From: Candidatus Nealsonbacteria bacterium | GTDB lineage: Bacteria > Patescibacteriota > Minisyncoccia > Minisyncoccales > JAGMDC01 | Assembly (NCBI GenBank): GCA_030612885.1 | Contig: JAUWMZ010000004.1 | Span: 17,631 to 81,630, forward strand | DNA length: 64,000 nt | Reading direction: 5' to 3' | In this document: piece by piece, positions 3,788-56,224 of the stretch | Numbering within the stretch: the stretch's first letter is position 1 | How the letters are laid out: every line of letters starts with the position of its first letter | The notes under the pieces: model-generated | What the model was told of the DNA's origin: nothing | Seen by the model: only the letters and a program-made list of their open reading frames with translations | Databases searched by the model: none | Made by a program: the position numbers and the translations under genes

Positions 3788-5833
3788 TTATTTTTTGTAG
3801 TCGCACTCTTTATTTGAGCATTTGATTTTGCCTTTTTTTGTTTCTACTAAAAGAGAACCGCATTCAGGACATTTCTCATTAATTGGTTTGTCCCAAAGAG
3901 CAAAATCGCATTTTGGATATTGATTGCAGGCGTAAAATGTTTTTCCTTTTCTAGTTTTCTTCTCTATAATTTCTCCTTTGCCGCATTTAGGACATTTGAT
4001 ATTCAAAGACGGTCTTTCCAATGGTTTAGTGTATCTGCATTTTGGAAAGCTAGAGCAAGCGTAAAATTTTCCATATCTGCTCATTTTTTTTACCAAAGGC
4101 GAACCGCATTTAGGACATTTTTCATTTGTTTTTTCTTCAGCAATTTCTTTTTTAGCTATTTCTTTTTCCTTTACTTTTAAATTTTCTTCAAAAGGCTGAT
4201 AAAATTCTTTTATTACCGAAATCCATTTTCTTTTTCCTTCAGATATTTCATCTAAATCCTTTTCCATTTCCGCTGTAAATTTCATATCTACAATTTTAGG
4301 AAAATGTTTAACCAACAAATCATTAACGATGATTCCTATTTCTGTCGGCTCAAATTTTTTATTTTCATTTTTTTGAACATAATTTCTTTCCTGAATTGTA
4401 GAAATTGTAGGCGCATAAGTTGAAGGCCTGCCAATGCCGTTTTCTTCTAAAACTTTAATTAAGGTTGCCTCTGTATATCTGCCTGGCGGCTGGGTGAAAT
4501 GCTGTGAAGGAAGAAGTTTTAAGAGTTCTAATATCTCATTTATCTCAAGTACGGGCAGTTCGTTTTCTTCGTATTTAATGGAATATACCTTTAAGAATCC
4601 ATCAAATTTAAGTATCTGTCCGGTTGTTCTAAAGATATATTCTTTAGCGCTAATATCTACAGTAGTGGAGTCAAAGAGGGCTTGACTCATTTGACAAGCG
4701 ATAAATCTCCGCCAAATTAAATCATAAAGTCGAAGTTGGTTATCATCTAACTTAGCTTTTATCTCTAGTTTGTCAGGCTCTTTATCAGGATAAGCAGGTC
4801 TTATGGCTTCATGGGCTTCTTGAGCGCCTTTTGCTTTTGTTTTGTATTTCTTCAAAAACCCAGCCCAATATTCTTTTCCGTAATTATCAATGATAAATTT
4901 TCTTGCTCCAAACAAAGACATTTCAGATAGATTTAAAGAATCAGTTCTATGATAGGTAATAAGTCCTTTTTCATAGAGGCCCTGGGCAGTTCTCATTGTC
5001 ATTTTAGCGGGCCAGCGCAATCTTTTCCAGGATTCTTGCTGTAGAGTAGAGGTAGTAAAAGGCGGCAAAGGATTTCTTTTTATTTCTTTTTTTTCAATGT
5101 TTGAAATCTTGTATTCAGCTCCTTTTAAATCCTTAACAATCTTTTCCGTTTCTTTTTTTGTTTTAATTCCCAGTTTCGGAATTACTTTCCCATCTTTTTT
5201 AATAAGCTTTGCCAAGAATTCATTTTTCGCGTTGGTTTTGTGTGATTGAAGCTTTGCTTCAATCAGCCAATATTCTTCTGGCTTGAAATTTTTAATTTCT
5301 CTTTCCCGTTCCACTACCAGACGGACAGTTACCGATTGAACCCTTCCTGCAGAAAGTCCTCGGGCGACTTTTTTCCATAAAAGAGGGGAGAGTTTATAGC
5401 CAACCAAACGGTCTAAAATTCTTCTTGCTTGCTGAGCATTAACCAAATTTATGTCAATTTTTCTTGGATTTTTTAAGGCCTGCTCAATTGCTGATTTGGT
5501 AATTTCGTGAAAGACAATCCTTTGATACTTTTTACCATTTAAATTTAAAATTTGGCTTAGATGATAGGCGATTGCTTCTCCTTCTCTATCTTCATCAGTG
5601 GCCAAAATAAGCAGGTCTGTTTTTTGAGATTCTTTTTTAAGTAATGAAACTGTTTTTCTTGCTTTTAGAGGAATAACATATCTCGGCTTAAAATTTTTCT
5701 CTGTGTCTATTCCTAATTCACTTTTTGGCAAGTCGCGAATATGACCATAAGAAGATAGGACCTTGTATTTAGGTCCTAAAAAATTACTGATAGTCTTAGA
5801 TTTTGTAGGGCTTTCAACGATGACTAATTGCAT
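3788..5833 (-). CDS. topA: DNA topoisomerase I
   Basis: TOPRIM start MQLVIVESPTKSKTI, active-site region ITYHRTDS, C-terminal CxxC...CxxC zinc ribbons. Confidence 0.95.
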   Translation of the reverse strand: MQLVIVESPTKSKTISNFLGPKYKVLSSYGHIRDLPKSELGIDTEKNFKPRYVIPLKARKTVSLLKKESQKTDLLILATDEDREGEAIAYHLSQILNLNGKKYQRIVFHEITKSAIEQALKNPRKIDINLVNAQQARRILDRLVGYKLSPLLWKKVARGLSAGRVQSVTVRLVVEREREIKNFKPEEYWLIEAKLQSHKTNAKNEFLAKLIKKDGKVIPKLGIKTKKETEKIVKDLKGAEYKISNIEKKEIKRNPLPPFTTSTLQQESWKRLRWPAKMTMRTAQGLYEKGLITYHRTDSLNLSEMSLFGARKFIIDNYGKEYWAGFLKKYKTKAKGAQEAHEAIRPAYPDKEPDKLEIKAKLDDNQLRLYDLIWRRFIACQMSQALFDSTTVDISAKEYIFRTTGQILKFDGFLKVYSIKYEENELPVLEINEILELLKLLPSQHFTQPPGRYTEATLIKVLEENGIGRPSTYAPTISTIQERNYVQKNENKKFEPTEIGIIVNDLLVKHFPKIVDMKFTAEMEKDLDEISEGKRKWISVIKEFYQPFEENLKVKEKEIAKKEIAEEKTNEKCPKCGSPLVKKMSRYGKFYACSSFPKCRYTKPLERPSLNIKCPKCGKGEIIEKKTRKGKTFYACNQYPKCDFALWDKPINEKCPECGSLLVETKKGKIKCSNKECDYKK

Positions 5834-6692
5834 AGATATTTCCTCCTAAGTTTCTTACTTTGTTTTGTATCTCCAAATTAGAAAGAGTGCTTGCTACTTT
5901 GGCTGGACCAAGTTCTGTTCTTTCAATTATTTTATCAATATACAATGCTTGTTGAGATAAAGCAACCAAAACGAGTTTTTCTGCTTCATTTTCTCCTTTT
6001 ATCTCTTTTTTGTTGTTTAATTTAAATAGACCAGTGTCTAAATTTAGTTCTTTTAAAATATCTTTGGCATTTTCTACTAGCTTCGCGCCTCGTTTGATTA
6101 AAAAATGGCAGCCTTTAGAATTCTGGGAATAAATGGAGCCGGGCAGAGCAAAAACTTTTCTTCCTTGTTTTCTTGCCCATTCAGCAGTAATCAAGGCGCC
6201 GGATTTTTCTTTTGCCTCCACAACTAAAATACCCAAACTTAAGCCAGAAATTATCCGGTTTCTATTCGGAAAGCTGAATTTAGAACCAGGGGTTCCAGAA
6301 GGGTATTCAGAAATTAAAAGTCCATTCTTTTCTAAAACTTTTTCTACTAACTTTAAATTTGATTGGGGATAAATAGTTTTTTCATCTAAGCCGGTTCCTA
6401 AGACAGCAATTGTTCTTTTTTCTCTTTCTAAAACTCCTGAATGGGCTGCGGTGTCAATTCCTTGAGCAAAACCGCTGACAATGGTTAAGCCAGCCTCACT
6501 TAGATCGCCAGCGATTTCCAAGGCTGCTTGTTTTCCATAAGAAGAACACATTCTGGTTCCAACAATTCCAAAACAGGGCTCTTTAGCAATTATTTTTCCT
6601 CTGTAATAAAGAACCTCTGGCGCGCCTTTAATTTCTTTTAATCGCTTGGGATAATTCTCGTCCTCAATTGAGATGGTTTTTATCTCATTCAT
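5814..6692 (-). CDS. dprA: DNA-processing protein DprA
   Basis: GIVGTRMCSSYGKQAALEIAGDLSEAGLTIVSGFAQGIDTAAH Rossmann-like DprA core. Confidence 0.85.
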   Translation of the reverse strand: MNEIKTISIEDENYPKRLKEIKGAPEVLYYRGKIIAKEPCFGIVGTRMCSSYGKQAALEIAGDLSEAGLTIVSGFAQGIDTAAHSGVLEREKRTIAVLGTGLDEKTIYPQSNLKLVEKVLEKNGLLISEYPSGTPGSKFSFPNRNRIISGLSLGILVVEAKEKSGALITAEWARKQGRKVFALPGSIYSQNSKGCHFLIKRGAKLVENAKDILKELNLDTGLFKLNNKKEIKGENEAEKLVLVALSQQALYIDKIIERTELGPAKVASTLSNLEIQNKVRNLGGNIYAISHR

Positions 6693-7486: not shown

Positions 7487-8047
7487 ATGAAAATATTAAA
7501 AAGTATATTGTCATTTATCTGGGAGATATCTAAAATTGTTATTATTGCTTTGCTGATAGTAATTCCTATCCGCTATTTTATATTCCAGCCATTTTTTGTT
7601 AAAGGCCAATCTATGGAGCCGAATTTTCACAATGGTGATTATTTAATTATTGATGAAATATCTTATCGTTTTTCTGCTCCCGAAAGGGGAGAAGTAGTAG
7701 TTTTCAAATATCCGAATAATCCTTCCCAGCGTTATATTAAAAGAATTATTGGTTTGCCAGGAGAAACAATAAAAATAGAAGATGATAAAGTAAATATTTT
7801 GAACGACGACTGTGAATTTGTGTTATATGAATCAAACTATCTTTCTGACTTTATACAAACGCCGGGAGATATTGTATTTCCATTAGGAGAAAATGAATAT
7901 TTTGTTTTAGGGGATAATAGAAATGCTTCTTTTGATTCCCGAAAATGGGGCGCTCTATCAGAAGAAGATATTATAGGAAGAGTGTTTTTTAGAGCTTGGC
8001 CAGTAAGCGTCTTAGCTAAGATTGAGATACCGGAGTATAACCACTAA
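7487..8047 (+). CDS. lepB: signal peptidase I
   Basis: GQSMEPN (catalytic Ser), RGEVVVF, YIKRIIGLPGETI (Lys box), GDNRNASFDSR. Confidence 0.9.
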   Translation: MKILKSILSFIWEISKIVIIALLIVIPIRYFIFQPFFVKGQSMEPNFHNGDYLIIDEISYRFSAPERGEVVVFKYPNNPSQRYIKRIIGLPGETIKIEDDKVNILNDDCEFVLYESNYLSDFIQTPGDIVFPLGENEYFVLGDNRNASFDSRKWGALSEEDIIGRVFFRAWPVSVLAKIEIPEYNH

Positions 8048-8115
8048 TAAAATCACTAATTTGAATCTCTAATTATCACTAATAATTTATTCGTGAGTAT
8101 TCGTGATTATAGCAA
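8048..8115. repeat. AT-rich word-repeat spacer (CACTAAT / ATTCGTG family)
   Basis: aatcactaat...tatcactaataatttattcgtgagtattcgtgat; same words as the spacers at 42141-42233 and 43559-43648. Confidence 0.6.
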
Positions 8116-8123
8116 ACTTTAGT

Positions 8124-8154
8124 TTGATATATCAAAACTTCGTTTTGTTATAAT
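8124..8154 (+). promoter_or_regulatory. putative sigma70-type promoter of hisS (TTGATA-19-TATAAT) inside palindrome tttgatatatcaaa
   Basis: TTGATA 8124-8129, TATAAT 8149-8154, 12 nt before the GTG start; a near-identical motif recurs at 27709-27739. Confidence 0.4.
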
Positions 8155-8166
8155 TCGTAAATATTT

Positions 8167-9450
8167 GTGGCAAGAAAGCCGAAATTTCAAACTTTAACAG
8201 GAATGCATGATGTTTTACCTGACAAGCAGAAGTATTTTCAAAAGATTTATAATACATCCAAGGATATTGCTAACTTTTGCGGTTTTGAAAAAATTGATAC
8301 GCCCATAATTGAACAGGCTGAACTTTTTGAAAAAGGAACTGGTTTGTCTACTGATATTGTTCAGAAAGAGATGTATAGCTTTAAGACCAAAGGAGGGGAT
8401 TGGGTAACCTTAAGGCCAGAGGGGACCCCGTCCATTGTCAGGGCTTATATTGAACATGGCATGCAGTCTCTTCCTCAACCAGTGAAGCTTTGGTACTCTG
8501 GTCCTTTTTTCCGGCATGAACGTCCCCAGGCTGGCCGTTATAGACAGTTTAATCATATTGGTTTTGAGATATTAGGCGAGAAAAATTCAGTCATTGATGC
8601 TCAAATCATTCAAGTTTTCTATAATATTTTAAAGGAATTAAAGATTAACGATATAATAATAGAGATAAACAGTATTGGAGATTCCCACTGCAGGCCCTAT
8701 TACAAAAAATTGTTAGTAAGTTATTTGAAAAATCGAGAGAGTTTGCTGTGTTCTAATTGTAGAAAGCGACTTAGAGAAAACCCTTTAAGAGTTTTAGATT
8801 GTAAAGAAGAGAGATGCAAGAAAGTAGTCAGTCAAGCACCTCAGATGATTGACCATCTCTGCGATGAGTGTAATCAGCACTTTAAAGAAGTTTTAGAATT
8901 TTTAGATGATATGGAGCTTCCTTATAATCTTAGTCCATATTTAGTTAGAGGTCTTGACTATTATACTAAAACCGTTTTTGAAATATATCAAGATACAGAA
9001 GAAGGCAGAAAGCAGGGCTCTTTAGCGGGTGGAGGAAGATATGATAGATTGGTTAAACTTTTAGGAGGAAGAGATGTACCAGCTTGCGGTGCCGCATTAG
9101 GAGTAGAAAGAATAATGAATGTAATGGAAAATATAGGGGTTCGGCTTCCTCAATCTTCTTCTCCCCGAGTTTTCTTGGCCCAATTAGGCACTCTTTCCAA
9201 GCAAAAGAGTTTGAAACTTTTTGAGGAGTTCAGAAAAGCTAAAATTCCAATAGCTGAATCGTTTAGCAAAGATTCTTTAAAAAGCCAGTTAAGAATAGCT
9301 GATAAAACAGGAGTGGATTATACTTTAATCCTTGGTCAGAAAGAGGTTTTTGAAGGCATAATAATTTTAAGAGAGATGAAAACAGGAAAACAGGAAACCG
9401 TGAAGATAGATAAAATAATTAATACAATGAAAAGGAAACTAAAGAAATAA
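8167..9450 (+). CDS. hisS: histidyl-tRNA synthetase
   Basis: GTG start; GMHDVLP, LRPEGTPSIVRAY, FRHERPQAGRYRQFNHIG class II motifs, GGGRYD. Confidence 0.92.
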   Translation: MARKPKFQTLTGMHDVLPDKQKYFQKIYNTSKDIANFCGFEKIDTPIIEQAELFEKGTGLSTDIVQKEMYSFKTKGGDWVTLRPEGTPSIVRAYIEHGMQSLPQPVKLWYSGPFFRHERPQAGRYRQFNHIGFEILGEKNSVIDAQIIQVFYNILKELKINDIIIEINSIGDSHCRPYYKKLLVSYLKNRESLLCSNCRKRLRENPLRVLDCKEERCKKVVSQAPQMIDHLCDECNQHFKEVLEFLDDMELPYNLSPYLVRGLDYYTKTVFEIYQDTEEGRKQGSLAGGGRYDRLVKLLGGRDVPACGAALGVERIMNVMENIGVRLPQSSSPRVFLAQLGTLSKQKSLKLFEEFRKAKIPIAESFSKDSLKSQLRIADKTGVDYTLILGQKEVFEGIIILREMKTGKQETVKIDKIINTMKRKLKK

Positions 9451-10548: not shown

Positions 10549-11772
10549 ATGGCAAAAAATCATTTTATCACTGGTTTAGATATAGGAAGCGGTTCTATCA
10601 AAGGTTTGACCGTTTTGAGAAAACAAGATTCTCCAAATTTTGAAGTTTTGGGTAGGTCGGAAAAGTTTTCTTTGGGAATTAGAAAGGGAGCAATAGTTGA
10701 TCCTGAAACAGTTTCTAAAAATATTCGCTGGGTGATAAATCAGCTTGAAAATGAGTCCGGTCAGAAAATTGACGATGTTTATATTAATTTGGGCGGAAGC
10801 CATATTTTTTGTACTCCTTCTCATGGTACTGTGGTTGTTTCTCGGGCTGACCAGAAAATTTCTAAAGAAGACATTGATAGAGTACTTCAATCAGCTCAAG
10901 CATTTTCTTTACCTTTAAATAAGGAAATTATTGAAATTTTCCCTAAAGAATTTATTGTTGATGGAGAAGGAGGGATAAAACAGGTTGAAGGAATGAGGGG
11001 CGTAAAATTGGAAGTAGATGCTTTGGCGATCTGCGCTTTCACTCCTTATTTCAATAATCTAACTAAGGCAGTTTCAAATTCAGATATTCAAGTTGGAGAC
11101 ATTATTCCTTCTGCTTTAGCTTCAGCCAAAGCAGTTCTTACTCCCCACCAAAAAGAATTAGGGGTGGTTTTAATAGACATTGGCGCTGGCACTACCTCAT
11201 TAGCTGTTTATCAAGAAGGAGATTTGATTTATACTGCTGTTTTTCCAATTGGTTCTGCTCATATTACGCAGGACATTGCTATTGGATTACAAACGGACAT
11301 TGATGTTGCCGAGAAAATAAAAAAGCAATTTGGCACTTGTATTTTAAACGGTAGCGGAAGCAATAAAAAAGAAAAAATTTTAGCATCGCAGAACTCTCCT
11401 TTAGTTTTTTCCCGCAAAATGCTGACCAAAATTATTGAAGCAAGGGTCTCGGAAATTTTTAATTTGGTCCAGAAAGAAATAAAAAAGATTACTCCTCAGC
11501 CCCTGCTTCCGGCAGGTATTGTTTTAACCGGCGGCGGGGCGAAAATACCCAGAATTGTAGAGCTGGCTAAAAAAGAATTAAAACTTCCAGCCCGGCGTGG
11601 ATTTCCTCAAGGATTTTCAGAAATAGAAGAGGATTCTTCCTTAAGCGTTGTCTGCGGTTTAGTGTTAGAAGGAGCAGATTGGTCTAAAGAGCCAAGTTTT
11701 TCCGGCTTCAGTGCCGCTGGCAAAGGGATTCTCGGAAAACTCAAAAAGATATTTAAGATTTTTATACCATAA
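10549..11772 (+). CDS. ftsA: cell division protein FtsA
   Basis: Actin-fold motifs GLDIGSGSIKG, LIDIGAGTTSLAV, VLTGGGAKIP; C-terminal amphipathic helix GKLKKIFKIFIP. Confidence 0.92.
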   Translation: MAKNHFITGLDIGSGSIKGLTVLRKQDSPNFEVLGRSEKFSLGIRKGAIVDPETVSKNIRWVINQLENESGQKIDDVYINLGGSHIFCTPSHGTVVVSRADQKISKEDIDRVLQSAQAFSLPLNKEIIEIFPKEFIVDGEGGIKQVEGMRGVKLEVDALAICAFTPYFNNLTKAVSNSDIQVGDIIPSALASAKAVLTPHQKELGVVLIDIGAGTTSLAVYQEGDLIYTAVFPIGSAHITQDIAIGLQTDIDVAEKIKKQFGTCILNGSGSNKKEKILASQNSPLVFSRKMLTKIIEARVSEIFNLVQKEIKKITPQPLLPAGIVLTGGGAKIPRIVELAKKELKLPARRGFPQGFSEIEEDSSLSVVCGLVLEGADWSKEPSFSGFSAAGKGILGKLKKIFKIFIP

Positions 11773-11990
11773 TCTATGCAAAAAAAACGAAAATTTTAAT
11801 TGGGATCTTAATTGGGGTTTTAGTTATAATAATTTTACTCATCGGAATTTTAGCTTGGCGGTATGTACCATTTAGATACCCTATCCCATAAATTTCTAGA
11901 AAATAAATTAAAAATTCGCAAAATTATCAAAGATTGAATAATTTTGAATTTTCGTTTATGCTTTCTACTTTTCGTTTTTCGGAGTAAAAT

Positions 11991-12416
11991 ATGAAAAACT
12001 CTAAAGGCATAAAAAATAATAGTTTCAATAAAAATACCAGATATTGGTTAGATAGTTCTGAAAAAGATTTTCAAGCTGCTCAAAGTTTGTTAAAATCAAA
12101 ACATTATTCTCAATGCTTGTTTTTCTGCCATCTATCTGTGGAAAAATTATTAAAAGGAATTGTTACGCAAACGATAAAAGATTATCCTCCTTTTACGCAC
12201 GATCTGCGAAAATTAGCCAGAATAGCTGGTTTAGATTTGAGTCCCAGTCAGAAGAAAGTTTTAGACAAAATTTTTAGCTTTAATATTGTGGGACGTTACG
12301 CTGGGGCAAAATTAGAATTTTATAAAAAATACAATAAAAAGGAATATGCCCAAAAATATTTGAAGATTACACAAGATTTACTTCTATGGCTAAAAAAAGA
12401 ATCCCCAAAAAAGTAA
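11991..12416 (+). CDS. HEPN-domain protein (TA-like partner of the downstream nucleotidyltransferase)
   Basis: 141-aa helical ORF, ...SQCLFFCHLSVEKLLKGIV...THDLRKLARIAG... typical of HEPN; overlaps next ORF. Confidence 0.7.
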   Translation: MKNSKGIKNNSFNKNTRYWLDSSEKDFQAAQSLLKSKHYSQCLFFCHLSVEKLLKGIVTQTIKDYPPFTHDLRKLARIAGLDLSPSQKKVLDKIFSFNIVGRYAGAKLEFYKKYNKKEYAQKYLKITQDLLLWLKKESPKK

Positions 12417-12718
12417 TTACTGTAGTACAGGGATACGCTAAACGATTGGCAGAAAAAGATAAATTACCAATAAAAAAGGTAATCATTTTTGGTTCCTATG
12501 CCAAAGGAAAACCTCATAAATGGAGCGATGTTGATGTCTGCGTTATTTCACCTAAATTCAAGAGTGGATTTGAAGCATTGCAATTTTTGTTAATAAGAAG
12601 GAATGAACAAGAGGTGATGGCTGGTTTGGAGCCTGTAGGTTTTTCTGATAAAGATTTTAAAGAAGGAAGCAGTTTAATCCAGGAGATTAAAAAAACTGGT
12701 GTAAGAATAAAAGTTTAG
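12386..12718 (+). CDS. minimal nucleotidyltransferase (MNT-type)
   Basis: GSYAKGKPHKWSDVDVCVI = GSxxxGx(n)SDxDxxV Pol-beta NTase motif. Confidence 0.8.
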   Translation: MAKKRIPKKVITVVQGYAKRLAEKDKLPIKKVIIFGSYAKGKPHKWSDVDVCVISPKFKSGFEALQFLLIRRNEQEVMAGLEPVGFSDKDFKEGSSLIQEIKKTGVRIKV

Positions 12719-12754
12719 TTATAAACAATCAAAAATATTTAAGATTTTTATACC

Positions 12755-13696
12755 ATGACAAGTTTAGCTAAAATAAAAGTAATAGGGGTTGGCGGGTCTG
12801 GTTCTAATGCTGTTTCCAGAATGATGAAATGTAAAATTCAAGGCATTGATTTAATTGCCATTAATGCTGATGCCCAAGATTTAAAGCATACTTTTGCCCA
12901 TCAGAAAATTCGTATTGGCAAACAAGTAACTAAGGGTTTAGGTACGGGTATGAATCCAGAAGTGGGAAGGAAAGCAGCTGAAGAAAACAAAGAAGAGATT
13001 GAAAAGGTTTTAAAAGGTTCAGATATGGTTTTTATCACCTGCGGGCTTGGCGGCGGCTGCGGATCCGGCGCTTCTTCAGTAGTGGCTGAGATTGCTAAAA
13101 AGCAAGGGGCTTTGACTATTGCCGTGGTTACCAAGCCATTTTTTTTTGAGGGCAATCAGCGTCAGGCCATAGCTGAAAAAGCATTGAAAAATTTAAGAGA
13201 GAAAGTAGATACTCTGCTTATTATTCCCAATGACAAAGTTCTTTCTTTGATTGATAAAGAAACAACCTTACTCTCTGCTTTTTGGGCCTGCGATGAAGTC
13301 CTTAGAGAAGCGGTTCAGGGAATTTCCGATTTGATTGTTTTTCCCGGTATTATCAATGTTGATTTTGCTGATTTAAAAGCTATTATGAAAAACTCTGGTC
13401 CTGCTTTGTTCGGCATTGGTTATGGAAAAGGAGAAAACAGAATAGAAGAAGCAGTGAACCAGGCTATTAATTCTCCTTTGCTTGATTTCTCAATTCAAGG
13501 AGCGAAAGGCCTTTTATTTAATGTCAGCGGAGGAAGAGATATTAGCTTAGAAGAGGTCAGAAATATTGCCAATATTATTACCAAACATACTAGCCCCAGA
13601 GCAAAAGTAATTTTTGGCGCTGTTCAGGATAAAAATTTATCCAAAGGAGAAATAAAAATTACTGTTATTGCTACTGGGTTTAATAATAATGATTAA
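12755..13696 (+). CDS. ftsZ: cell division GTPase FtsZ (core only, no C-terminal linker/peptide)
   Basis: GVGGSGSNAV, tubulin signature GLGGGCGSGASS, NVDFADL; ORF ends 7 aa after VIATGF. Confidence 0.92.
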   Translation: MTSLAKIKVIGVGGSGSNAVSRMMKCKIQGIDLIAINADAQDLKHTFAHQKIRIGKQVTKGLGTGMNPEVGRKAAEENKEEIEKVLKGSDMVFITCGLGGGCGSGASSVVAEIAKKQGALTIAVVTKPFFFEGNQRQAIAEKALKNLREKVDTLLIIPNDKVLSLIDKETTLLSAFWACDEVLREAVQGISDLIVFPGIINVDFADLKAIMKNSGPALFGIGYGKGENRIEEAVNQAINSPLLDFSIQGAKGLLFNVSGGRDISLEEVRNIANIITKHTSPRAKVIFGAVQDKNLSKGEIKITVIATGFNNND

Positions 13697-32442: not shown

Positions 32443-32904
32443 ATGCGTAAAAAAGTAAAAAAAAGAGAAATTTTGCCTGATTCTGTTTATGATAATATTA
32501 TGGTTTCCCAGTTTATTAATCAGGTAATGCGTAGAGGTAAAAAAACAACTGCCAGAAAGATTATTTATGGCACTTTTGATATTATTAAAGAAAAAACAAA
32601 GAAAGAACCTTTAGATGTTTTTGATTTAGCTATCCAAAATGCTTCTCCTTTACTTGAAGTAAAATCAAAAAGAATTGGAGGAGCTGTTTATCAAGTTCCC
32701 AGAGAGGTAAAAGGAGAAAGAAAAATAAGCTTGGCTATGCGCTGGATTATTTCTGCTGCCAAATCAAAAAAAGGAAAATCAATGAAAGAGAAGTTAGCTG
32801 AAGAATTAATTGCGGCCTCCAAAAACGAGGGGACAACTATCAAAAAGAAGAACGACACTCATCGTATGGCAGAGGCGAACCGCGCTTTTGCTCACTTTGC
32901 CTAA
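32443..32904 (+). CDS. rpsG: 30S ribosomal protein S7
   Basis: ILPDSVYDN..., [24 protein letters not shown]. Confidence 0.97.
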
Positions 32905-32906
32905 GA

Positions 32907-32990
32907 ATCATTTTAACATTCAATCATTTTAACATATTAACATAATTCAAATTCAGAATGTTAACATGTTAATATGTTTACATGATGGAA
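32907..32990 (+). repeat. hairpin spacer, TTAACAT/ATGTTAA word family
   Basis: aacatattaacat (32931-43) pairs perfectly with atgttaatatgtt (32966-78); shares a 21-nt core aattcaaattcagaatgttaa with 35303-35323. Confidence 0.75.
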
Positions 32991-33132
32991 ACCTTGGATT
33001 TTATTTTCTCTTTTATATTAGTATTACTTTTAATATACCTTTTATTAGTATCGATTTGGTAAAAATTTGTTTTGTTATTTAATAAAAGGTTAATTCATTG
33101 GTAAATAAATAAAAAACTTTTAACTTAAACAT

Positions 33133-35238: not shown

Positions 35239-35273
35239 TTTGATTTTTGTGGAGGAGTTTGCTAAAGTAAATA

Positions 35274-35350
35274 ATCATATTAACATACTAACATATTAAC
35301 AAAATTCAAATTCAGAATGTTAAAACGTTTGAATGTTAAAATGTTGAAAT
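35274..35350 (+). repeat. hairpin spacer, TTAACAT/ATGTTAA word family
   Basis: catattaacatactaacatattaac...gaatgttaaaacgtttgaatgttaaaatgttg. Confidence 0.75.
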
Positions 35351-35351
35351 A

Positions 35352-35642
35352 ATGACCTTAGATGAAATCAAAAATTTAATAGCATTAGATGGGGGAAAGT
35401 TTATTATTGTGGAAAATGGACAACCAGTGCTAATGATAATGAGCTTTAATGATTATAAAGAGATAATATGGAATTCTGAAAAAATTTCTTCCCAGCAATC
35501 AGATTCTAATTCTGAAAAAGAAATCCCAAAAGCTCAAGAAGTTCAAGGATTTAATTCAGAGAGCGATAACGAATATGCAGAGGTAAATGAGAGAACTCCC
35601 CAATCAGAAGAATCGTTAAAGATTGAGGATTTGCCGGTTTAG
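35352..35642 (+). CDS. orphan Phd/YefM-like antitoxin-domain protein with acidic tail
   Basis: GGKFIIVENGQPVLMIMSFNDYKEI resembles the Phd/YefM N-terminal domain; no toxin gene adjacent; inserted between fusA and tuf. Confidence 0.45.
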   Translation: MTLDEIKNLIALDGGKFIIVENGQPVLMIMSFNDYKEIIWNSEKISSQQSDSNSEKEIPKAQEVQGFNSESDNEYAEVNERTPQSEESLKIEDLPV

Positions 35643-35699: not shown

Positions 35700-35786
35700 A
35701 ATATAATCTTATAACAACATACTAACGTATTAACATATTAACAAAAATTAGTGTTAAAATGTTAAAATGTTAAAATGTTAAAGTGA
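35700..35786 (+). repeat. hairpin spacer, TTAACAT/ATGTTAA word family
   Basis: caacatactaacgtattaacatattaac...gtgttaaaatgttaaaatgttaaaatgttaaag, ending 3 nt before the tuf ATG. Confidence 0.75.
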
Positions 35787-35789
35787 TTT

Positions 35790-36989
35790 ATGGCTGAGAA
35801 AGAAAAATTTGAAAGAGGAAAAACTCATCTTAATATTGGGACTATCGGTCACGTAGACCATGGTAAAACCACGCTTACAGCAGCTATTCTGCATGTTTTA
35901 AAGTTGAAAGGCTTTAAAGCATCGGAGAAAGCAGTAGAGCAGATTGATTCTGCTCCAGAAGAAAAAGCGCGTGGTTTAACTATTAATATTTCCCATTTAG
36001 AGTATGAAACAGAAAAGAGGCACTATGCGCATATTGATTGTCCTGGACACGCTGATTATATTAAAAATATGGTTACCGGTGCCGCGCAGATGGATGGAGC
36101 CATTTTGGTTGTTTCGGCTGCTGATGGTGTTATGCCTCAAACCAGAGAGCATATTTTGCTTGCTCGCCAAGTAGGATTATCTCATATAGTAGTATTTTTG
36201 AATAAATGTGATACCGTAGATGACCCTGAGATAATTGATTTAGTTGAGTCAGAAGTAAAAGAGCTTTTAAAAAAATATGAATTTCCAGGAGATGAAATTC
36301 CTGTTATTCGCGGTTCCGCTATTAAATCCCTTGATGCAAAGTCAGCTGATGATGAAGCAGCCAAACCAATTTTGGATTTAGCTAAAGCAGTAGATGATTA
36401 CTTTCCTGAACCAACTCGAGATATTGATAAACCATTTTTAATGGCTATTGAGGATGTTTTCTCTATTGCTGGAAGAGGAACTGTTGCTACTGGCAGGATT
36501 GAGCGAGGAATAGTTCATCCAAACGATGATGTAGAAATTGTTGGTTTTAAGCCTACCCAGAAAACAGTAGCAGTGAGCGTAGAAATGTTTAATAAGATAC
36601 TTGACGAAGGAAGAGCTGGTGATAATGTTGGAATTTTACTTCGCGGCCTTAAAAAAGAAGATGTGGAAAGAGGACAAGTTTTAGCAAATCCCGGCAGCAT
36701 TACTCCTCATACTGAATTTGACAGTGAAATTTATGTCCTGACCAAAGAAGAAGGTGGAAGACATTCTCCTTTCTTTGCCGGTTATAAGCCACAATTCTAT
36801 ATTCGAACGACTGATGTTACCGGAGATGTTGCCTTACCAGAAGGGACAGAGATGGTTATGCCCGGAGATACTGTTAATCTAAAAATTAAATTGATTGCTC
36901 CAATTGCTCTTGAAGAAAAACAAAGATTTGCTATCAGGGAAGGAGGTAAGACCGTAGGAGCAGGAGTAGTAACGAAGATAATTAAGTAA
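35790..36989 (+). CDS. tuf: elongation factor Tu
   Basis: [22 protein letters not shown], canonical EF-Tu throughout. Confidence 0.98.
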
Positions 36990-40866: not shown

Positions 40867-40916
40867 CATTTCCAAATTTATTATTTGTTAGTATGTTAAA
40901 ATGTTAGCATGTTTAT
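40867..40916 (+). repeat. short spacer of the TTAACAT/ATGTTAA word family
   Basis: ttgttagtatgttaaaatgttagcatgtttat directly before the rplV ATG. Confidence 0.55.
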
Positions 40917-41453
40917 ATGCCTATTACAGCGAGATTAAAGTATCTTCATATTGCTCCGAGAAAAGTTCGTTTAGTAACTGATTTGATTCGCGGAAAAACG
41001 GTTGAGGAAGCTCAAAAGATTTTGAATTTTAGTTCGAATAGAGCTTCTCAGCCATTATTGAAATTACTTAAATCCTGTATAGCTAATGCCAAAAATAATT
41101 TTCAAATTGAGCAAGAAAACCTTTTTATATTAAAGATTTTTGTTGATGAAGGACCAAAACTAAAAAGATGGCATGCTCAATCAAGAGGTCGGGCTGCTGA
41201 AATTCAAAAAAAGAGTTCCCATATTTCTTTAGAAATAAGTGAGATTAAAAAGAAAACTAAAAAAATTAAAAAGGTAGCAAAAACAAAAGAAAAAATTGTT
41301 GAAAAGAAATCCTCTCTTGCTGAAGTTAAGGGAGACAAGGTAGACAAAGAAGCTCCAAAAATAGAAAAACCAAAAACAATCATTAGGAAAGAGAGACCTG
41401 TGCCCAAAATAAAACAAACCATGAAGAGAGTATTTAGGCGAAAAGCCTTTTAA
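40917..41453 (+). CDS. rplV: 50S ribosomal protein L22 with ~70-aa Lys-rich C-terminal extension
   Basis: LHIAPRKVRLVTDLIRGK..., RGRAAEIQKKSSHI then KKKTKKIKKVAKTKEK... Confidence 0.93.
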   Translation: MPITARLKYLHIAPRKVRLVTDLIRGKTVEEAQKILNFSSNRASQPLLKLLKSCIANAKNNFQIEQENLFILKIFVDEGPKLKRWHAQSRGRAAEIQKKSSHISLEISEIKKKTKKIKKVAKTKEKIVEKKSSLAEVKGDKVDKEAPKIEKPKTIIRKERPVPKIKQTMKRVFRRKAF

Positions 41454-42140: not shown

Positions 42141-42233
42141 TCCACGAATAAAATCACGAATAAAAGAATCACTAATTATCACGAATAATTATTAGTGAAT
42201 ATTCGCGATTAAAATTAGTGATTTATTAGTGGT
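42141..42233 (+). repeat. hairpin spacer, CACGAAT/CACTAAT versus ATTAGTG/ATTCGCG word family
   Basis: ccacgaataaaatcacgaataaaagaatcactaattatcacgaataa | ttattagtgaatattcgcgattaaaattagtgatttattagtgg. Confidence 0.75.
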
Positions 42234-43558: not shown

Positions 43559-43648
43559 CCACTAATATTTACTAATTTTAATCACGAATACTCACTAATA
43601 ATTTATTAGTGATAATTAGTAATTTTTATTCGCGATTTTATTAGCGGT
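43559..43648 (+). repeat. hairpin spacer, CACTAAT/CACGAAT word family
   Basis: ccactaatatttactaattttaatcacgaatactcactaataa | ttattagtgataattagtaatttttattcgcgattttattagcgg. Confidence 0.75.
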
Positions 43649-44721: not shown

Positions 44722-44849
44722 AAATCCAAATTACAAAATCCAAATGTCAAATCAAATCCAAAATCCAAATGTCAAAAAAAGAGTTTTAGTTATTTGATAT
44801 TTAGTCATTTGACATTGAATTGACATTTGAGCTTTGACATTTGACATTC
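44722..44849. repeat. ~128-nt hairpin spacer, AAATCC/CAAATGTC versus GACATTTG word family; inverted copy of 49431-49556
   Basis: 44722-44780 is the exact reverse complement of 49498-49556 (59 nt); the rest matches apart from one 7-nt unit. Confidence 0.9.
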
Positions 44850-48710: not shown

Positions 48711-48783
48711 TGTCATTTTAACATTTTTTTAATTTATTTTTTGTTAATATGTTAACATATTAGTATATTAAGATGATTTTTTT
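48711..48783 (+). repeat. spacer of the TTAACAT/ATGTTAA word family
   Basis: tgtcattttaacattttttt...ttgttaatatgttaacatattagtat. Confidence 0.6.
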
Positions 48784-49482
48784 ATGAACAAGCCATTGAA
48801 TTTTACTTTCATAGGGAGATCTGGTTCAGGAAAAGGAACCCAGGCAAAACTTTTAATAAAGCACTTTGGAAATCTATTATATGTTTCCACTGGTGATTTA
48901 TTTAGAGATTTATCTAAAGCCAATACAGATACAAGCATAAGAGTTCAAAAAATAATAGAAGAAGGAGGTTTGCCGTTTGATGATTTAGCAGCTGCTTTAT
49001 GGATGCATAAACTTGCTTATAATCTTAAAGAAAATGAAGGATTTATTCTTGATGGCGCTCCTCGCAGAGTAAATGAAGCTCAAACATTAGACAGATATTT
49101 AGATTTTTTAGAAAGAAAAGAAACCTGTTTTAATTTGTTAATTGATATTTCCAGGCAGGAAGCATTTGACCGTTTATCAAAAAGACGAATTTGTAAGAAC
49201 TGTGGTCGTTTAATTCCTTGGGTTGGTGAGTTTAAAAAAATAAAAGTTTGCGACAAATGCGGAGGAGAATTAATTACTCGTGCTGATGATACGTCGGAAG
49301 CAATAAATAATAGATTAGATTATTACGAAGAGAGAGTAGCTCCAACTGTAAAATATTATGAAGAGCAAGACAGGTTGATAAAAATTAATGGCGAGCAATC
49401 TATAGAAGATGTTTTTAAAGAGATTCTAGAAAATGTCAAATGTCAAAGCTCAAATGTCAATTCAATGTCAAACGTCAAATGA
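48784..49482 (+). CDS. adk: adenylate kinase (zinc-lid type) with repeat-derived C-terminal tail
   Basis: GRSGSGKGTQAKLL, LDGAPRRVNEAQ, CKNCGR...CDKCGG; last ~17 codons (ENVKCQSSNVNSMSNVK) are encoded by the 49431-49556 repeat. Confidence 0.93.
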   Translation: MNKPLNFTFIGRSGSGKGTQAKLLIKHFGNLLYVSTGDLFRDLSKANTDTSIRVQKIIEEGGLPFDDLAAALWMHKLAYNLKENEGFILDGAPRRVNEAQTLDRYLDFLERKETCFNLLIDISRQEAFDRLSKRRICKNCGRLIPWVGEFKKIKVCDKCGGELITRADDTSEAINNRLDYYEERVAPTVKYYEEQDRLIKINGEQSIEDVFKEILENVKCQSSNVNSMSNVK

Positions 49483-49556
49483 CTAAATGTCAAATTATTT
49501 TTTTGACATTTGGATTTTGGATTTGATTTGACATTTGGATTTTGTAATTTGGATTT
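49431..49556. repeat. ~126-nt hairpin spacer, inverted copy of 44722-44849
   Basis: See 44722-44849; overlaps the adk 3' end and generates the spurious MDFGFDLTFGFCNLD N-terminus of the map ORF. Confidence 0.9.
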
Positions 49557-53833: not shown

Positions 53834-56224
53834 ATGAAAAAATCAGAAAAACTTATACTTTGGTACAGAGAAATCTCTAAAGATGATGTTGCTTTGGTTG
53901 GCGGGAAAAATGCTTCTCTGGGAGAGATGTTTTCGCAACTCACAAAAAAGGGAATTAACATTCCTGATGGTTTTGTTTTAACTTCAAAGGCATACTGGCA
54001 TTTCTTAAAAAAGAATCAGATTAACGAACAAATAAAAAAAATATTTAAGAATTTTAATCCAAAAAGTTTGAGTTCTTTAGAAAAAACCGGCAGAGATGCA
54101 AGGCAATTAATTTTAAAGTCTGAATTTCCACAGGACTTAAAAAAAGAGATTCTGGAAAATTATAGAAAGTTGTCTAAAAAATATAATAAAGGGAATGTCG
54201 ATGTCGCTGTAAGAAGTTCGGCCACTGCGGAAGACCTGCCAAGCGCGAGTTTTGCCGGCCAACATGAGACTTACTTGAATATTTCTGGCAGCGAAGAATT
54301 ATTAAAAGCCATTAAAAAATGTATGGCTTCTTTGTTTACTGATAGAGCCATTGCCTATCGTGATGAGAAAGGTTTTAATCACTTAAAAATTGCTTTATCT
54401 GTTGGAGTTCAAAAAATGATCAGGTCAGACATAGCTTCTTCTGGTATAATGTTTACCTTAGATACTGAAACTGGATTTCAAAATGTGGTTTTAATTAATT
54501 CTATCTATGGAATAGGAGAAATGATAGTTAAAGGGAAAATCACGCCTGATGAATTTTATGTTTTTAAGCCAACCCTTCGGCAGGCTCAGGGCAAGCTTTA
54601 CGAACCAATAATTTCAAAAAATTTGGGAAGGAAGAATAAACAATATATCTATAATAAAAATGGCGGATTGAAAGAAATTAAGGTTCCTCAAAACAAGCAA
54701 TTAAAATTTTCTTTAACTGATGACGAAATTTTATACTTAGCTAACTGGGCTTGTCAAATTGAAGAGCATTACAAAATGCCCCAAGATATTGAATGGGCAA
54801 AAGACGGAAAAACCGGAAAGTTATTTATTGTTCAAGCAAGGCCGGAGACAGTTCATACCTCTGAAGTTAAAAAAGTTTATGAAGAATATAGAATTCAAAC
54901 AAAGAAAAAGCCGATTTTAGAAGGAATTGCTGTTGGAAATAAAATCGGTCAGGGAAAAACAAGAATTGTTTCTAATATTTCAAAAATTAGTCAATTCAGA
55001 AAGGGAGAGGTTTTGGTAACCAAAATCACAGATCCGGACTGGGTTCCGATAATGCGGCTCGCTTCGGCTATTGTTACTGATGAAGGCGGCAAGACCTGCC
55101 ATTCTGCTATAGTGGCCCGGGAATTAGGAATACCCTGTATTGTTGGAACAAAAACCGCTACAAAAGTCTTGAAAAACGATCAAGATATAACCATTGATTG
55201 TACACAAGGATTAGAAGGAAGAATATTTTTAGGAAAAATTTCTTTTGAAATTAAAAAATATAATTTGAGAAAGATTCCCAAATTAAAAACAAAGATCATG
55301 CTCAACATCGGAGCGCCAGACATTGCTTTTAAGACTTCATTTTTGCCGAATGACGGAGTAGGATTAGCTAGAGAAGAGTTTATTATTGCGGAAAAAATTA
55401 GAATTCATCCCTTGGCTCTTTATCACTTTAAAGAATTAGAAGACAAAACATTAAAGAAAAAAATTGAGAAAATAAGCGTTGGATACAAAGATAAAAAGCA
55501 ATATTTTGTTGATAAGTTGGCAGAGGGAGTGGCGACAATTGCGGCAGCGTTTTATCCTAAAGAAGTAATTTTGAGATTTTCTGATTTTAAAAGCAATGAA
55601 TATAGAAATTTAATAGGCGGCGAACTTTTTGAGCAAGAAGAAGCAAATCCAATGCTGGGATTCAGGGGCGCCTGCCGTTATTTAGATAAAGAATTTCAGC
55701 CGGCCTTTCAAATGGAATGCCAGGCAATTAAAAAAGCAAGAGAAGAATTCGGCTTAAAAAATATCACTTTAATGGTTCCTTTTTGCCGAACAGTAGAGGA
55801 GGGGAAAAAAGTTTTAGATTTAATGAAAAAGTTTGGTTTGGAAAAAGGAAAAGATGGCTTAAAAGTCATTGTAATGTGCGAAATTCCTTCCAATGTTATT
55901 TTAGCAGATGAATTTTTAGACATTTTTGACGGGATGTCAATCGGTTCAAACGACCTTACTCAGTTATCATTAGGAATGGATAGGGACAATGCGCGGATTG
56001 CTCATATTACTGATGAGAGAAATCCGACTATTAAAAAAATGCTTTCAAAAGTGATTTATTTATGCCGCCAAAAGAAAAAATATTGCGGAATCTGCGGTGA
56101 AGCTCCTAGTACATATCCGGAATTTGCTGAATTTTTAGTTAAAGAAGGGATAGAAAGCATTTCTTTAAATCCAGACACTGTTATCAAAACAATTTTAAAC
56201 TTGGCAAAAAAGAAAAAAAAGTGA
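53834..56224 (+). CDS. ppsA: phosphoenolpyruvate synthase
   Basis: VGGKNASLGEM, VAVRSSATAEDLPSASFAGQHETYLN, phospho-His region TDEGGKTCHSAIVARELGIP, GSNDLTQ. Confidence 0.95.
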   Translation: MKKSEKLILWYREISKDDVALVGGKNASLGEMFSQLTKKGINIPDGFVLTSKAYWHFLKKNQINEQIKKIFKNFNPKSLSSLEKTGRDARQLILKSEFPQDLKKEILENYRKLSKKYNKGNVDVAVRSSATAEDLPSASFAGQHETYLNISGSEELLKAIKKCMASLFTDRAIAYRDEKGFNHLKIALSVGVQKMIRSDIASSGIMFTLDTETGFQNVVLINSIYGIGEMIVKGKITPDEFYVFKPTLRQAQGKLYEPIISKNLGRKNKQYIYNKNGGLKEIKVPQNKQLKFSLTDDEILYLANWACQIEEHYKMPQDIEWAKDGKTGKLFIVQARPETVHTSEVKKVYEEYRIQTKKKPILEGIAVGNKIGQGKTRIVSNISKISQFRKGEVLVTKITDPDWVPIMRLASAIVTDEGGKTCHSAIVARELGIPCIVGTKTATKVLKNDQDITIDCTQGLEGRIFLGKISFEIKKYNLRKIPKLKTKIMLNIGAPDIAFKTSFLPNDGVGLAREEFIIAEKIRIHPLALYHFKELEDKTLKKKIEKISVGYKDKKQYFVDKLAEGVATIAAAFYPKEVILRFSDFKSNEYRNLIGGELFEQEEANPMLGFRGACRYLDKEFQPAFQMECQAIKKAREEFGLKNITLMVPFCRTVEEGKKVLDLMKKFGLEKGKDGLKVIVMCEIPSNVILADEFLDIFDGMSIGSNDLTQLSLGMDRDNARIAHITDERNPTIKKMLSKVIYLCRQKKKYCGICGEAPSTYPEFAEFLVKEGIESISLNPDTVIKTILNLAKKKKK

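Follow-up and report, generated by a model that had tools for sequence, protein, structure and literature searches.

An insertion with target duplication at the overlapping ftsA/ftsZ junction of a Parcubacteria genome

How can accessory DNA settle between two division genes whose stop and start codons overlap, and leave both of them intact? The question is raised by the ftsA-ftsZ locus of a Candidatus Nealsonbacteria assembly (GCA_030612885.1), which we analysed within a 64-kb window, that is, the whole stretch of 64,000 nucleotides from contig JAUWMZ010000004.1 (positions 17,631 to 81,630 of the forward strand); positions given below are counted from its first letter. We found that 964 bp of accessory DNA form a lineage-specific insertion at the ftsA/ftsZ junction of this Parcubacteria (Minisyncoccales-like) genome, and that 22-26 bp of the ftsA 3' end are duplicated, with both gene ends left intact. 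The original prediction had placed a 22-nt perfect direct repeat at the junction, and its exact positions were confirmed. ATATTTAAGATTTTTATACCAT occurs in two perfect copies on the + strand (11749-11770 and 12735-12756), and no further match was present in the window even at up to three mismatches. In dinucleotide-preserving shuffles the expected number of copies was 0.01, and none of 100 shuffles contained two or more, so the repeat is not a random coincidence. Ungapped extension lengthened it to 26 nt with one mismatch (11745-11770 versus 12731-12756). A third look-alike at 54037 (81%) lies within a PPDK gene and was judged a chance match. The left copy codes for (K)IFKIFIP of FtsA and is followed by a TAA stop, and the right copy leads into the CCATGA of the empty site, which contains the ftsZ ATG at 12755.

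The empty site itself was seen in relatives, which were retrieved with the FtsA protein and were all Parcubacteria/Minisyncoccales metagenome-assembled genomes. As had been anticipated, ftsA and ftsZ overlap by ATGA and carry no insert in L001 (FtsA 94% identical to that of the window) and nine contigs sharing its FtsA, in L045 (89%), in L003 (77%) and in L048 and L049 (57%); in L069 (77%) the overlap is TAATG, again with no insert. Blastn of the window against L001 gave two alignment blocks with a common segment of exactly 26 nt (L001 5197-5222). Relative to L001, the window thus has a clean insertion with a 26-nt target duplication, in agreement with the earlier proposal that the insertion had duplicated the junction. 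In a degenerate form, the repeat is found as a single copy at the end of ftsA in each relative locus, and as two copies only in the strain of the window; the 22-mer is thus no common genomic word.

Short repeats can lead assembly graphs astray, and the locus comes from a metagenome-assembled genome; a chimeric join of ftsA-ftsZ with unrelated DNA through the repeat was therefore considered. An exact look-up of the FtsA of the window returned no entry; further assemblies of the same strain were reached through the HEPN protein encoded in the insert, and the filled locus was found at 100% identity in two of them from other samples (ERZ4220366 and ERZ4219663), one of which covers both insert junctions. 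The flanking genes are both intact and in frame, and an analogous island in another relative (L002, see below) recurs in three assemblies. These results make an assembly artefact extremely unlikely.

Table 1 Features of the ftsA-ftsZ locus in the window.
Feature	Position	Strand	Description
ftsA	10549..11772	+	Intact; ends ...KLKKIFKIFIP + TAA; Pfam FtsA, SHS2_FTSA, MreB_Mbl; 94% identical to L001 FtsA
Left repeat copy	11749..11770 (26 nt from 11745)		Last 7 ftsA codons + T of the stop codon
Surface-protein gene, 5' remnant	11776..11891	+	Frame-corrected translation; anchor likeness to P0207
Surface-protein gene, 3' remnant	11958..11987	+	Last 9 codons + stop, MLSTFRFSE*
HEPN gene	11991..12416	+	PF05168, E 3e-19, 69.7 bits (cut-off 22); 141 aa; GGAG ahead of the start
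MNT gene	12386..12718	+	NTP_transf_2 PF01909, E 5e-13, 49.8 bits (cut-off 21), also Pfam Polbeta; 110 aa
Spacer TTATAAACAATCAAAA	12719..12734		MNT stop to right repeat
Right repeat copy	12735..12756		Noncoding duplicate of the ftsA 3' end; ftsZ positions -20 to +2
ftsZ	12755..13696	+	Intact, 313 aa; Pfam FtsZ; 93% identical to L001 FtsZ

What was inserted is a composite, in which a decayed membrane-anchored surface-protein gene is followed by an intact HEPN/MNT pair (Table 1). Its G+C content is 26-31%, compared with 35-43% for ftsA and ftsZ. The HEPN gene starts 218 nt downstream of the ftsA stop and overlaps the MNT gene by 31 nt, and the ftsZ ATG lies 36 nt from the MNT stop and 983 nt from the ftsA stop. 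A small transmembrane open reading frame (ORF) had been proposed at the upstream end of the insert; it did not hold up, as no start codon lies in the transmembrane frame ...KILIGILIGVLVIIILLIGILAWRYVPFRYPIP*, which ends at 11891, and the sole ATG, at 11776, yields MQKKRKF* and is one base off that frame across a run of eight A (11780-11787). We read the segment 11776-11891 as a putative pseudogene. The A run contains A_AAA_AAA (11781-11787), a classical -1 slippery heptamer, and is identical in three assemblies; a -1 slip from the ATG at 11776 would restore the frame and give a 38-aa membrane peptide, MQKKTKILIG...RYPIP.

Both ends of this gene were traced to a large Patescibacteria surface-protein family with an N-terminal anchor, DETADWKTYRNEEYGFEIKYP modules and the C-terminus ...NQ(M/I)LSTFRFLE, some members of which match PF18933. 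The frame-corrected anchor peptide shares 53% identity over 30 aa with the N-terminal anchor of family member P0207 (L084). In local DNA alignments, the 3' remnant matched the 3' ends of the family genes in L067 and L002 with z = 10.6 and 11.2, respectively, and 0 of 500 shuffles did as well. Only these two ends are retained in the window; the middle is absent, the start is frameshifted, and no intact reading frame was found, which indicates a remnant and no functional family member. A general tie of the family to ftsA/ftsZ was considered and rejected, since two other members adjoin pilM/pilN-like genes and a restriction-modification cluster. The start of the HEPN gene was also found to be of mixed origin. 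Its first eight codons (MKNSKGIK, 11991-12014) match the opening of an unrelated 70-aa gene from the L002 island instead of that of the HEPN family, and likeness to the family begins only after them in both family and DNA alignments, indicating a chimeric 5' end. The description of the insert as a toxin-antitoxin (TA) or defence module was right as to the HEPN/MNT genes, and incomplete as to the gene remnant and the chimeric HEPN start.

The pair had been likened to type VII TA systems, and of this likeness the HEPN/MNT assignment (PF05168 and PF01909) stood and the type did not. The MNT protein carries the GSX10DXD motif as defined in PMC7641770 (here G36-S37-YAKGKPHKWS-D48-V49-D50), and the RNase motif Rx4-6H (RX4HXY) is absent from the HEPN protein and from a 28-member alignment of its family. 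Invariant in that alignment are W19, D26, H47, E51, K52, K55, F97, N98, R102, Y103 and W133, with R102-Y103 conserved in 28 of 28 sequences. PF05168 was the sole Pfam match of the HEPN protein, which matched neither PF01934 (DUF86) nor PF08780. NCBIfam gave no match for HEPN, and the MntA equivalog scored 32.4 bits for MNT, under its cut-off of 60. PADLOC candidate families for MNT were PDC-S09 and PDC-M05A. A search of the Protein Data Bank (PDB) with the single HEPN sequence found nothing, and one with the HEPN family profile returned weak matches to classical HEPN proteins only; MNT gave weak matches to MntA (5YEP) and HI0073. An AlphaFold2 model of HEPN (mean predicted local distance difference test score 87.7) was matched by Foldseek to 1UFB (TM-score 0.70/0.77), 1WOL, the sacsin HEPN domain 3O10, 2HSB and 1O3U, and to HepT (7BXO) only at a TM-score of about 0.5. 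The model thus predicts a classical four-helix HEPN fold, nearest to TT1696, ST0689, AF0298 and the sacsin HEPN domain.

These features assign the pair to the Class II HEPN/MNT modules rather than to the canonical type VII HepT/MntA pairs. Class II was defined by PF05168 with PF01909, no RX4HXY and a conserved tyrosine, and no biochemical study of it existed by then (Yao et al. 2020, PMC7641770). The window pair agrees with that definition in its PF05168 HEPN protein, its lack of RX4HXY, its conserved tyrosine and its adjacent GSX10DXD MNT protein, both proteins being shorter than 150 aa; it differs in belonging to a Patescibacteria subfamily, in having HEPN upstream and in the 31-nt gene overlap. 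With type VII HepT/MntA (Class I), a system characterised by a toxic HEPN protein that AMPylation neutralises, it has in common the MNT fold, GSX10DXD and a neighbouring HEPN-fold partner, and tyrosine nucleotidylation is plausible by analogy. It departs from type VII in lacking Rx4-6H, in its PF05168 assignment, in an MNT score under the MntA cut-off, in the reversed gene order and in a predicted HEPN fold that is nearer to TT1696, ST0689 and AF0298 than to HepT. By the same analogy, MNT may nucleotidylate the invariant Tyr103 of HEPN.

As had been suggested, the cassette also exists elsewhere. The HEPN family comprises 1,869 clusters at 50% identity (E <=0.001), and HEPN-MNT pairs with 60-77% identical HEPN proteins occur in unrelated contexts, next to type IV secretion-like genes (L071-L074), AAA_14 and NYN genes (L075) or a NERD gene (L076). 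Gene order is HEPN then MNT in the window and in all homologous pairs examined, and nucleotide homology between the loci does not extend past the two coding regions. An apparent continuation of the homology between the window and L067 past the MNT stop into ftsZ was traced to lenient blastn scoring, the alignment sharing only TTAT after the stop. No relatives of the HEPN family were found in an IMG/VR scan. The closest HEPN homologue (77%) is encoded in L067/L068, where HEPN-MNT and a full-length surface-protein gene lie between a HIT gene and a 72-aa gene, in the same syntenic block but two genes upstream of ftsA. A target duplication was looked for at this HIT|72-aa-gene insertion, and none was found. 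Between the HIT and HEPN genes, L067 has a 38-nt G+C-rich segment within a perfect 13-nt direct repeat, CAAATGAAAAATT (1310-1373).

MNT-HEPN pairs were first predicted as mobile TA-like modules, and their recent, strain-specific insertion into conserved operons has been noted, as in Thermus thermophilus, where the lysine-biosynthesis operon holds an MNT-HEPN module in HB8 and none in HB27 (Makarova, Wolf and Koonin 2009, PMC2701414). The present case is similar in that a two-gene module in one strain is missing from the syntenic locus of close relatives and interrupts a housekeeping operon. It differs from those cases in its target, the overlapping stop and start of two essential division genes, in the 22-26 bp target duplication, in the decayed passenger gene alongside and in the fact that another strain fills this site with a second cargo.

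That second cargo was found in L002 (84% FtsA identity), which has 1.6 kb at the same ftsA/ftsZ junction in the same orientation, an island repeated in three assemblies. Its order is a frameshifted surface-protein gene of the same family, the 70-aa gene, a Fic-domain gene and then ftsZ. The surface-protein gene (L002 5218-5938, also L081-L083) is split by a frameshift where its membrane anchor ends in three assemblies, and in three assemblies a TAA also stands ahead of its last 9 codons (MLSTFKFLE*). The 70-aa protein carries TMKLEG, which we take to fit the FicA-type inhibitory motif [S/T]xxxE[G/N]. This cargo, absent from the window, resembles FicT/FicA of the VbhT/VbhA type in combining a small upstream protein with a Fic protein that has HPFNDYNGRTAR. 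The target duplication in L002 is only ATGACA(A), and it too spans the ftsA/ftsZ overlap; the upstream ATGACA is the ftsZ-derived copy, since the alignment with the L067 surface-protein gene begins at the second ATG. A stretch of 39 nt that runs from the surface-protein gene's 3' end into the start of its downstream neighbour is common to the islands of the window and L002, and TTATAAA follows the last cargo gene in both. The two anchors show marginal similarity (z = 3.9), and orthology of the two surface-protein genes is not claimed.

Comparison of the flanking genes in the window, L001 and L002 showed different relationships on the two sides of the island. For ftsA, the site patterns window = L001 ≠ L002, window = L002 ≠ L001 and L001 = L002 ≠ window numbered 160, 33 and 50, and for ftsZ they numbered 43, 38 and 40 (160:33 versus 43:38, Fisher p = 8e-7). 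The shift was also seen close to the junction, between the last 300 nt of ftsA (50:8) and the first 300 nt of ftsZ (14:22; p = 3e-6). L002 is thus a clear outgroup to the window and L001 in ftsA, and all three are equidistant in ftsZ; in the downstream thioredoxin gene L002 is distant again (72%, versus 89% for L001). These patterns indicate a phylogenetic breakpoint at the junction, with the ftsZ beside the island having a history other than that of ftsA. Such a breakpoint is what would be expected if the island region had been exchanged through homologous recombination. We infer that the ftsA/ftsZ junction is a strain-variable hotspot whose history goes beyond one simple insertion. Between ftsZ and the thioredoxin gene, L002 further has a 397-aa Glu_synthase/FMN_dh-type gene (7783-8976, = L081 8283-9476) with overlapping stop/start on both sides, which is absent from the window and L001 and marks one more closely packed difference in gene content beside ftsZ.

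The explanation that we consider probable combines insertion with duplication at a hotspot, cargo swapping and homologous transfer, and involves no dedicated recombinase. Any surviving insertion between the overlapping ftsA and ftsZ would have to duplicate the overlap; here the left copy preserves the C-terminal FtsA codons and gains a TAA, and the right copy preserves the native upstream sequence and the ftsZ ATG. Only a duplication of the overlap keeps both essential genes intact, which would account for a duplication in both junction islands and none at the L067 insertion. The first insertion most likely arose through illegitimate or short-homology recombination, by way of a Campbell-type single crossover of a small circle or of a template switch during replication; selection would then have retained only the products that regenerate both gene ends. 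The HEPN/MNT cargo was probably swapped into a resident island by recombination, a view suggested by what the two islands share, namely the surface-protein gene 3' end and the opening 8 codons of the gene behind it. Homologous recombination, using ftsA and ftsZ as flanking arms, would probably carry the islands from strain to strain. Such later swapping and homologous transfer would account both for the breakpoint and for the chimeric start of HEPN. HEPN/MNT is probably an addiction- or defence-type module that would stabilise the island as its surface-protein gene decays; this fits with the two islands, in each of which the TA-like pair alone is intact and the surface-protein gene is decaying. 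A few kb upstream of ftsA, on the - strand, the window encodes topoisomerase I (3791-5833) and DprA, a protein of natural transformation (5817-6692); the latter would fit a capacity for natural transformation and for DNA acquisition by recombination.

Several points weigh against this explanation. Common ancestry of the two islands rests on the 39 nt (z ~11) and TTATAAA, with the anchors barely alignable and the duplications different, and two independent hits at the junction, in the window and in L002, are possible. The incongruence between ftsA and ftsZ comes from only six sequences and could reflect recombination unrelated to the island. The founding duplication event cannot be reconstructed from one filled site, and a 22-bp identical core around an insert is also the scar that site-specific integration leaves. 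Co-transcription of the locus and uncoupling of ftsZ from ftsA are deduced from sequence only, and toxicity has been shown for no Class II HEPN/MNT pair (PMC7641770).

Mobile elements of known kinds were weighed against the same data. Nothing besides the gene remnant, HEPN and MNT is encoded in the insert, which has no recombinase gene, and no integrase, resolvase or transposase was found among the 30 largest ORFs of the window. Target duplications of insertion sequences (IS), transposons and miniature inverted-repeat transposable elements (MITEs) are typically 2-14 bp. An element of any of these three kinds was ruled against by the 22-26 bp duplication and by the lack of terminal inverted repeats pairing the ends of the insert. 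Integrative elements target the 3' ends of genes, classically tRNA genes, and carry a copy of that end. The window insert is like them in that direct repeats of the target 3' end flank it and the target gene stays intact; it is unlike them in having no integrase and no conserved element ends, and in being only about 1 kb long. A site-specific element would nonetheless be conceivable if the 22-mer were an att core common to a small circle and the ftsA 3' end, with the recombinase encoded elsewhere. The perfect, sharply bounded 22-bp repeats, the regenerated 3' end of the target gene and the filling of the same junction in two lineages agree with such an element, as does the order of the units, HEPN-MNT-surface gene in L067 and surface gene-HEPN-MNT in the window, which are circular permutations of one another. 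Besides the missing integrase, it is opposed by the end of cassette homology at the coding limits with no conserved ends, by the L002 repeat of only 6-7 nt at other junction positions and by the lack of a repeat in L067; the predicted circle junction (...CAATCAAAA-22-mer-AATCTATGC...) was not found in IMG/VR, the only collection searched for it. On balance we regard a site-specific element as unlikely.

The age of the insertion bears on whether the empty sites are original or secondary. If the island were ancestral to the clade, the two direct repeats would have recombined precisely in the relatives with ATGA and removed it, which would restore the exact ATGA junction. The filled sites of the window and L002, with their shared segments, would agree with this, as would the empty site of L001, the nearest relative of the window. 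It would, however, require that the 94% and 89% lineages each lost the island precisely and on their own, and that either the two 77% lineages and the 57% one lost it too or the island arose later. In addition, both repeat copies carry the window-specific variant AAGATT and differ at no more than one position. In a test that is itself weak, a duplication as old as the L001 split should have accumulated 2.4-3.2 differences between the copies, and many more if older, against the 0-1 observed (P = 0.09 for no difference in 22 nt, and 0.22 for at most one in 26 nt). The different histories of ftsA and ftsZ in L002 also allow for lateral acquisition there. We therefore hold ancestral presence followed by repeated loss to be quite improbable. 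The insertion had been called recent, and this stands to the extent that the event should not greatly predate the divergence from the 94% relative, with no tighter bound.

Taken further, our preferred explanation of insertion, cargo swapping and homologous transfer could make the gene overlap of this Parcubacteria clade a dedicated, integrase-free landing pad, at which TA or defence cargo is exchanged behind a conserved leader (the surface-protein 3' end plus MKNSKxIK) and expressed by read-through, and from which the repeats would allow reversible, precise excision. We consider this extension speculative and, as it stands, doubtful.

For the division operon itself, the insert is co-oriented with its neighbours and contains no terminator-like site, so that read-through from ftsA into ftsZ is likely, and the insert is probably transcribed in this way. 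A -35/-10-like site, a candidate internal start, is present at 11915-11942. The stop/start translational coupling of ftsZ to ftsA appears to be lost. The ftsA-derived leader would be dispensable for ftsZ, which in L002 is preceded by TTATAAAGATTT only. A possible leader RNA stem ahead of ftsZ, formed by the MNT 3' end with the right repeat, was not significant (z = -1.1, with 27 of 200 shuffles folding as well), and a search of 11400-13000 against Rfam returned one chance snoRNA match below threshold only. The orientation of the pair, the lack of a terminator and its tight packing between ftsA and ftsZ could also suggest that the host has co-opted HEPN/MNT to regulate the division operon, for example by adjusting how much FtsZ is made or by halting division under stress, and both genes have stayed intact while the adjoining surface-protein gene decayed. 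Yet the nearest relatives are without the pair, homologous pairs lie in unrelated and often mobile contexts, and another strain has a Fic module at the same site. Co-option is accordingly very unlikely.

Some further features of the window and its relatives were recorded. The lepB-hisS intergenic region (8040-8172) is about 100 nt longer than in L001 and holds a 54-70 nt element, which looks MITE-like and is repeated in direct and inverted orientation with 81-94% identity at 42187-42224 and 43571-43648. Arrays of an 8-nt periodic motif (TGTTAAAA/ATGTTAAC) at 32903-32994, 35269-35361, 35711-35795, 40870-40926 and 48726-48781 are intergenic, occur in both orientations and flank EF-G, EF-Tu and ribosomal-protein genes. 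An inverted repeat of 65-73 nt, up to 97% complementary (44722-44848 and 49432-49556), encloses about 4.6 kb that include secY. In L050 (3634-6530; 57% FtsA identity), a 144-aa gene comes after ftsA, and then an 817-aa ORF that resembles a P-loop ATPase by eye only, and no ftsZ was found within 3.1 kb.

Taken as a whole, the locus is a case of a known phenomenon, the strain-specific insertion of HEPN/MNT into an operon, and not a new mechanism or system, and its novelty is modest. It is instructive for its twists, namely the overlap of essential genes as the target, the long target duplication and the strain-variable cargo. Accessory DNA has entered the 4-nt stop/start overlap of two essential division genes, and the sole visible scar is the duplication that rebuilds both ends, which illustrates a general rule that insertions between overlapping genes must duplicate the overlap to survive. 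For the Class II HEPN/MNT modules, which are uncharacterised, it adds a well-documented case of turnover. In the reduced genomes of Patescibacteria, the intact ftsZ in two independent lineages suggests that the gene stays functional with its ftsA overlap broken by 1-1.6 kb. If the overlap did serve as a landing pad, FtsA:FtsZ coupling would be a switchable, strain-variable trait.

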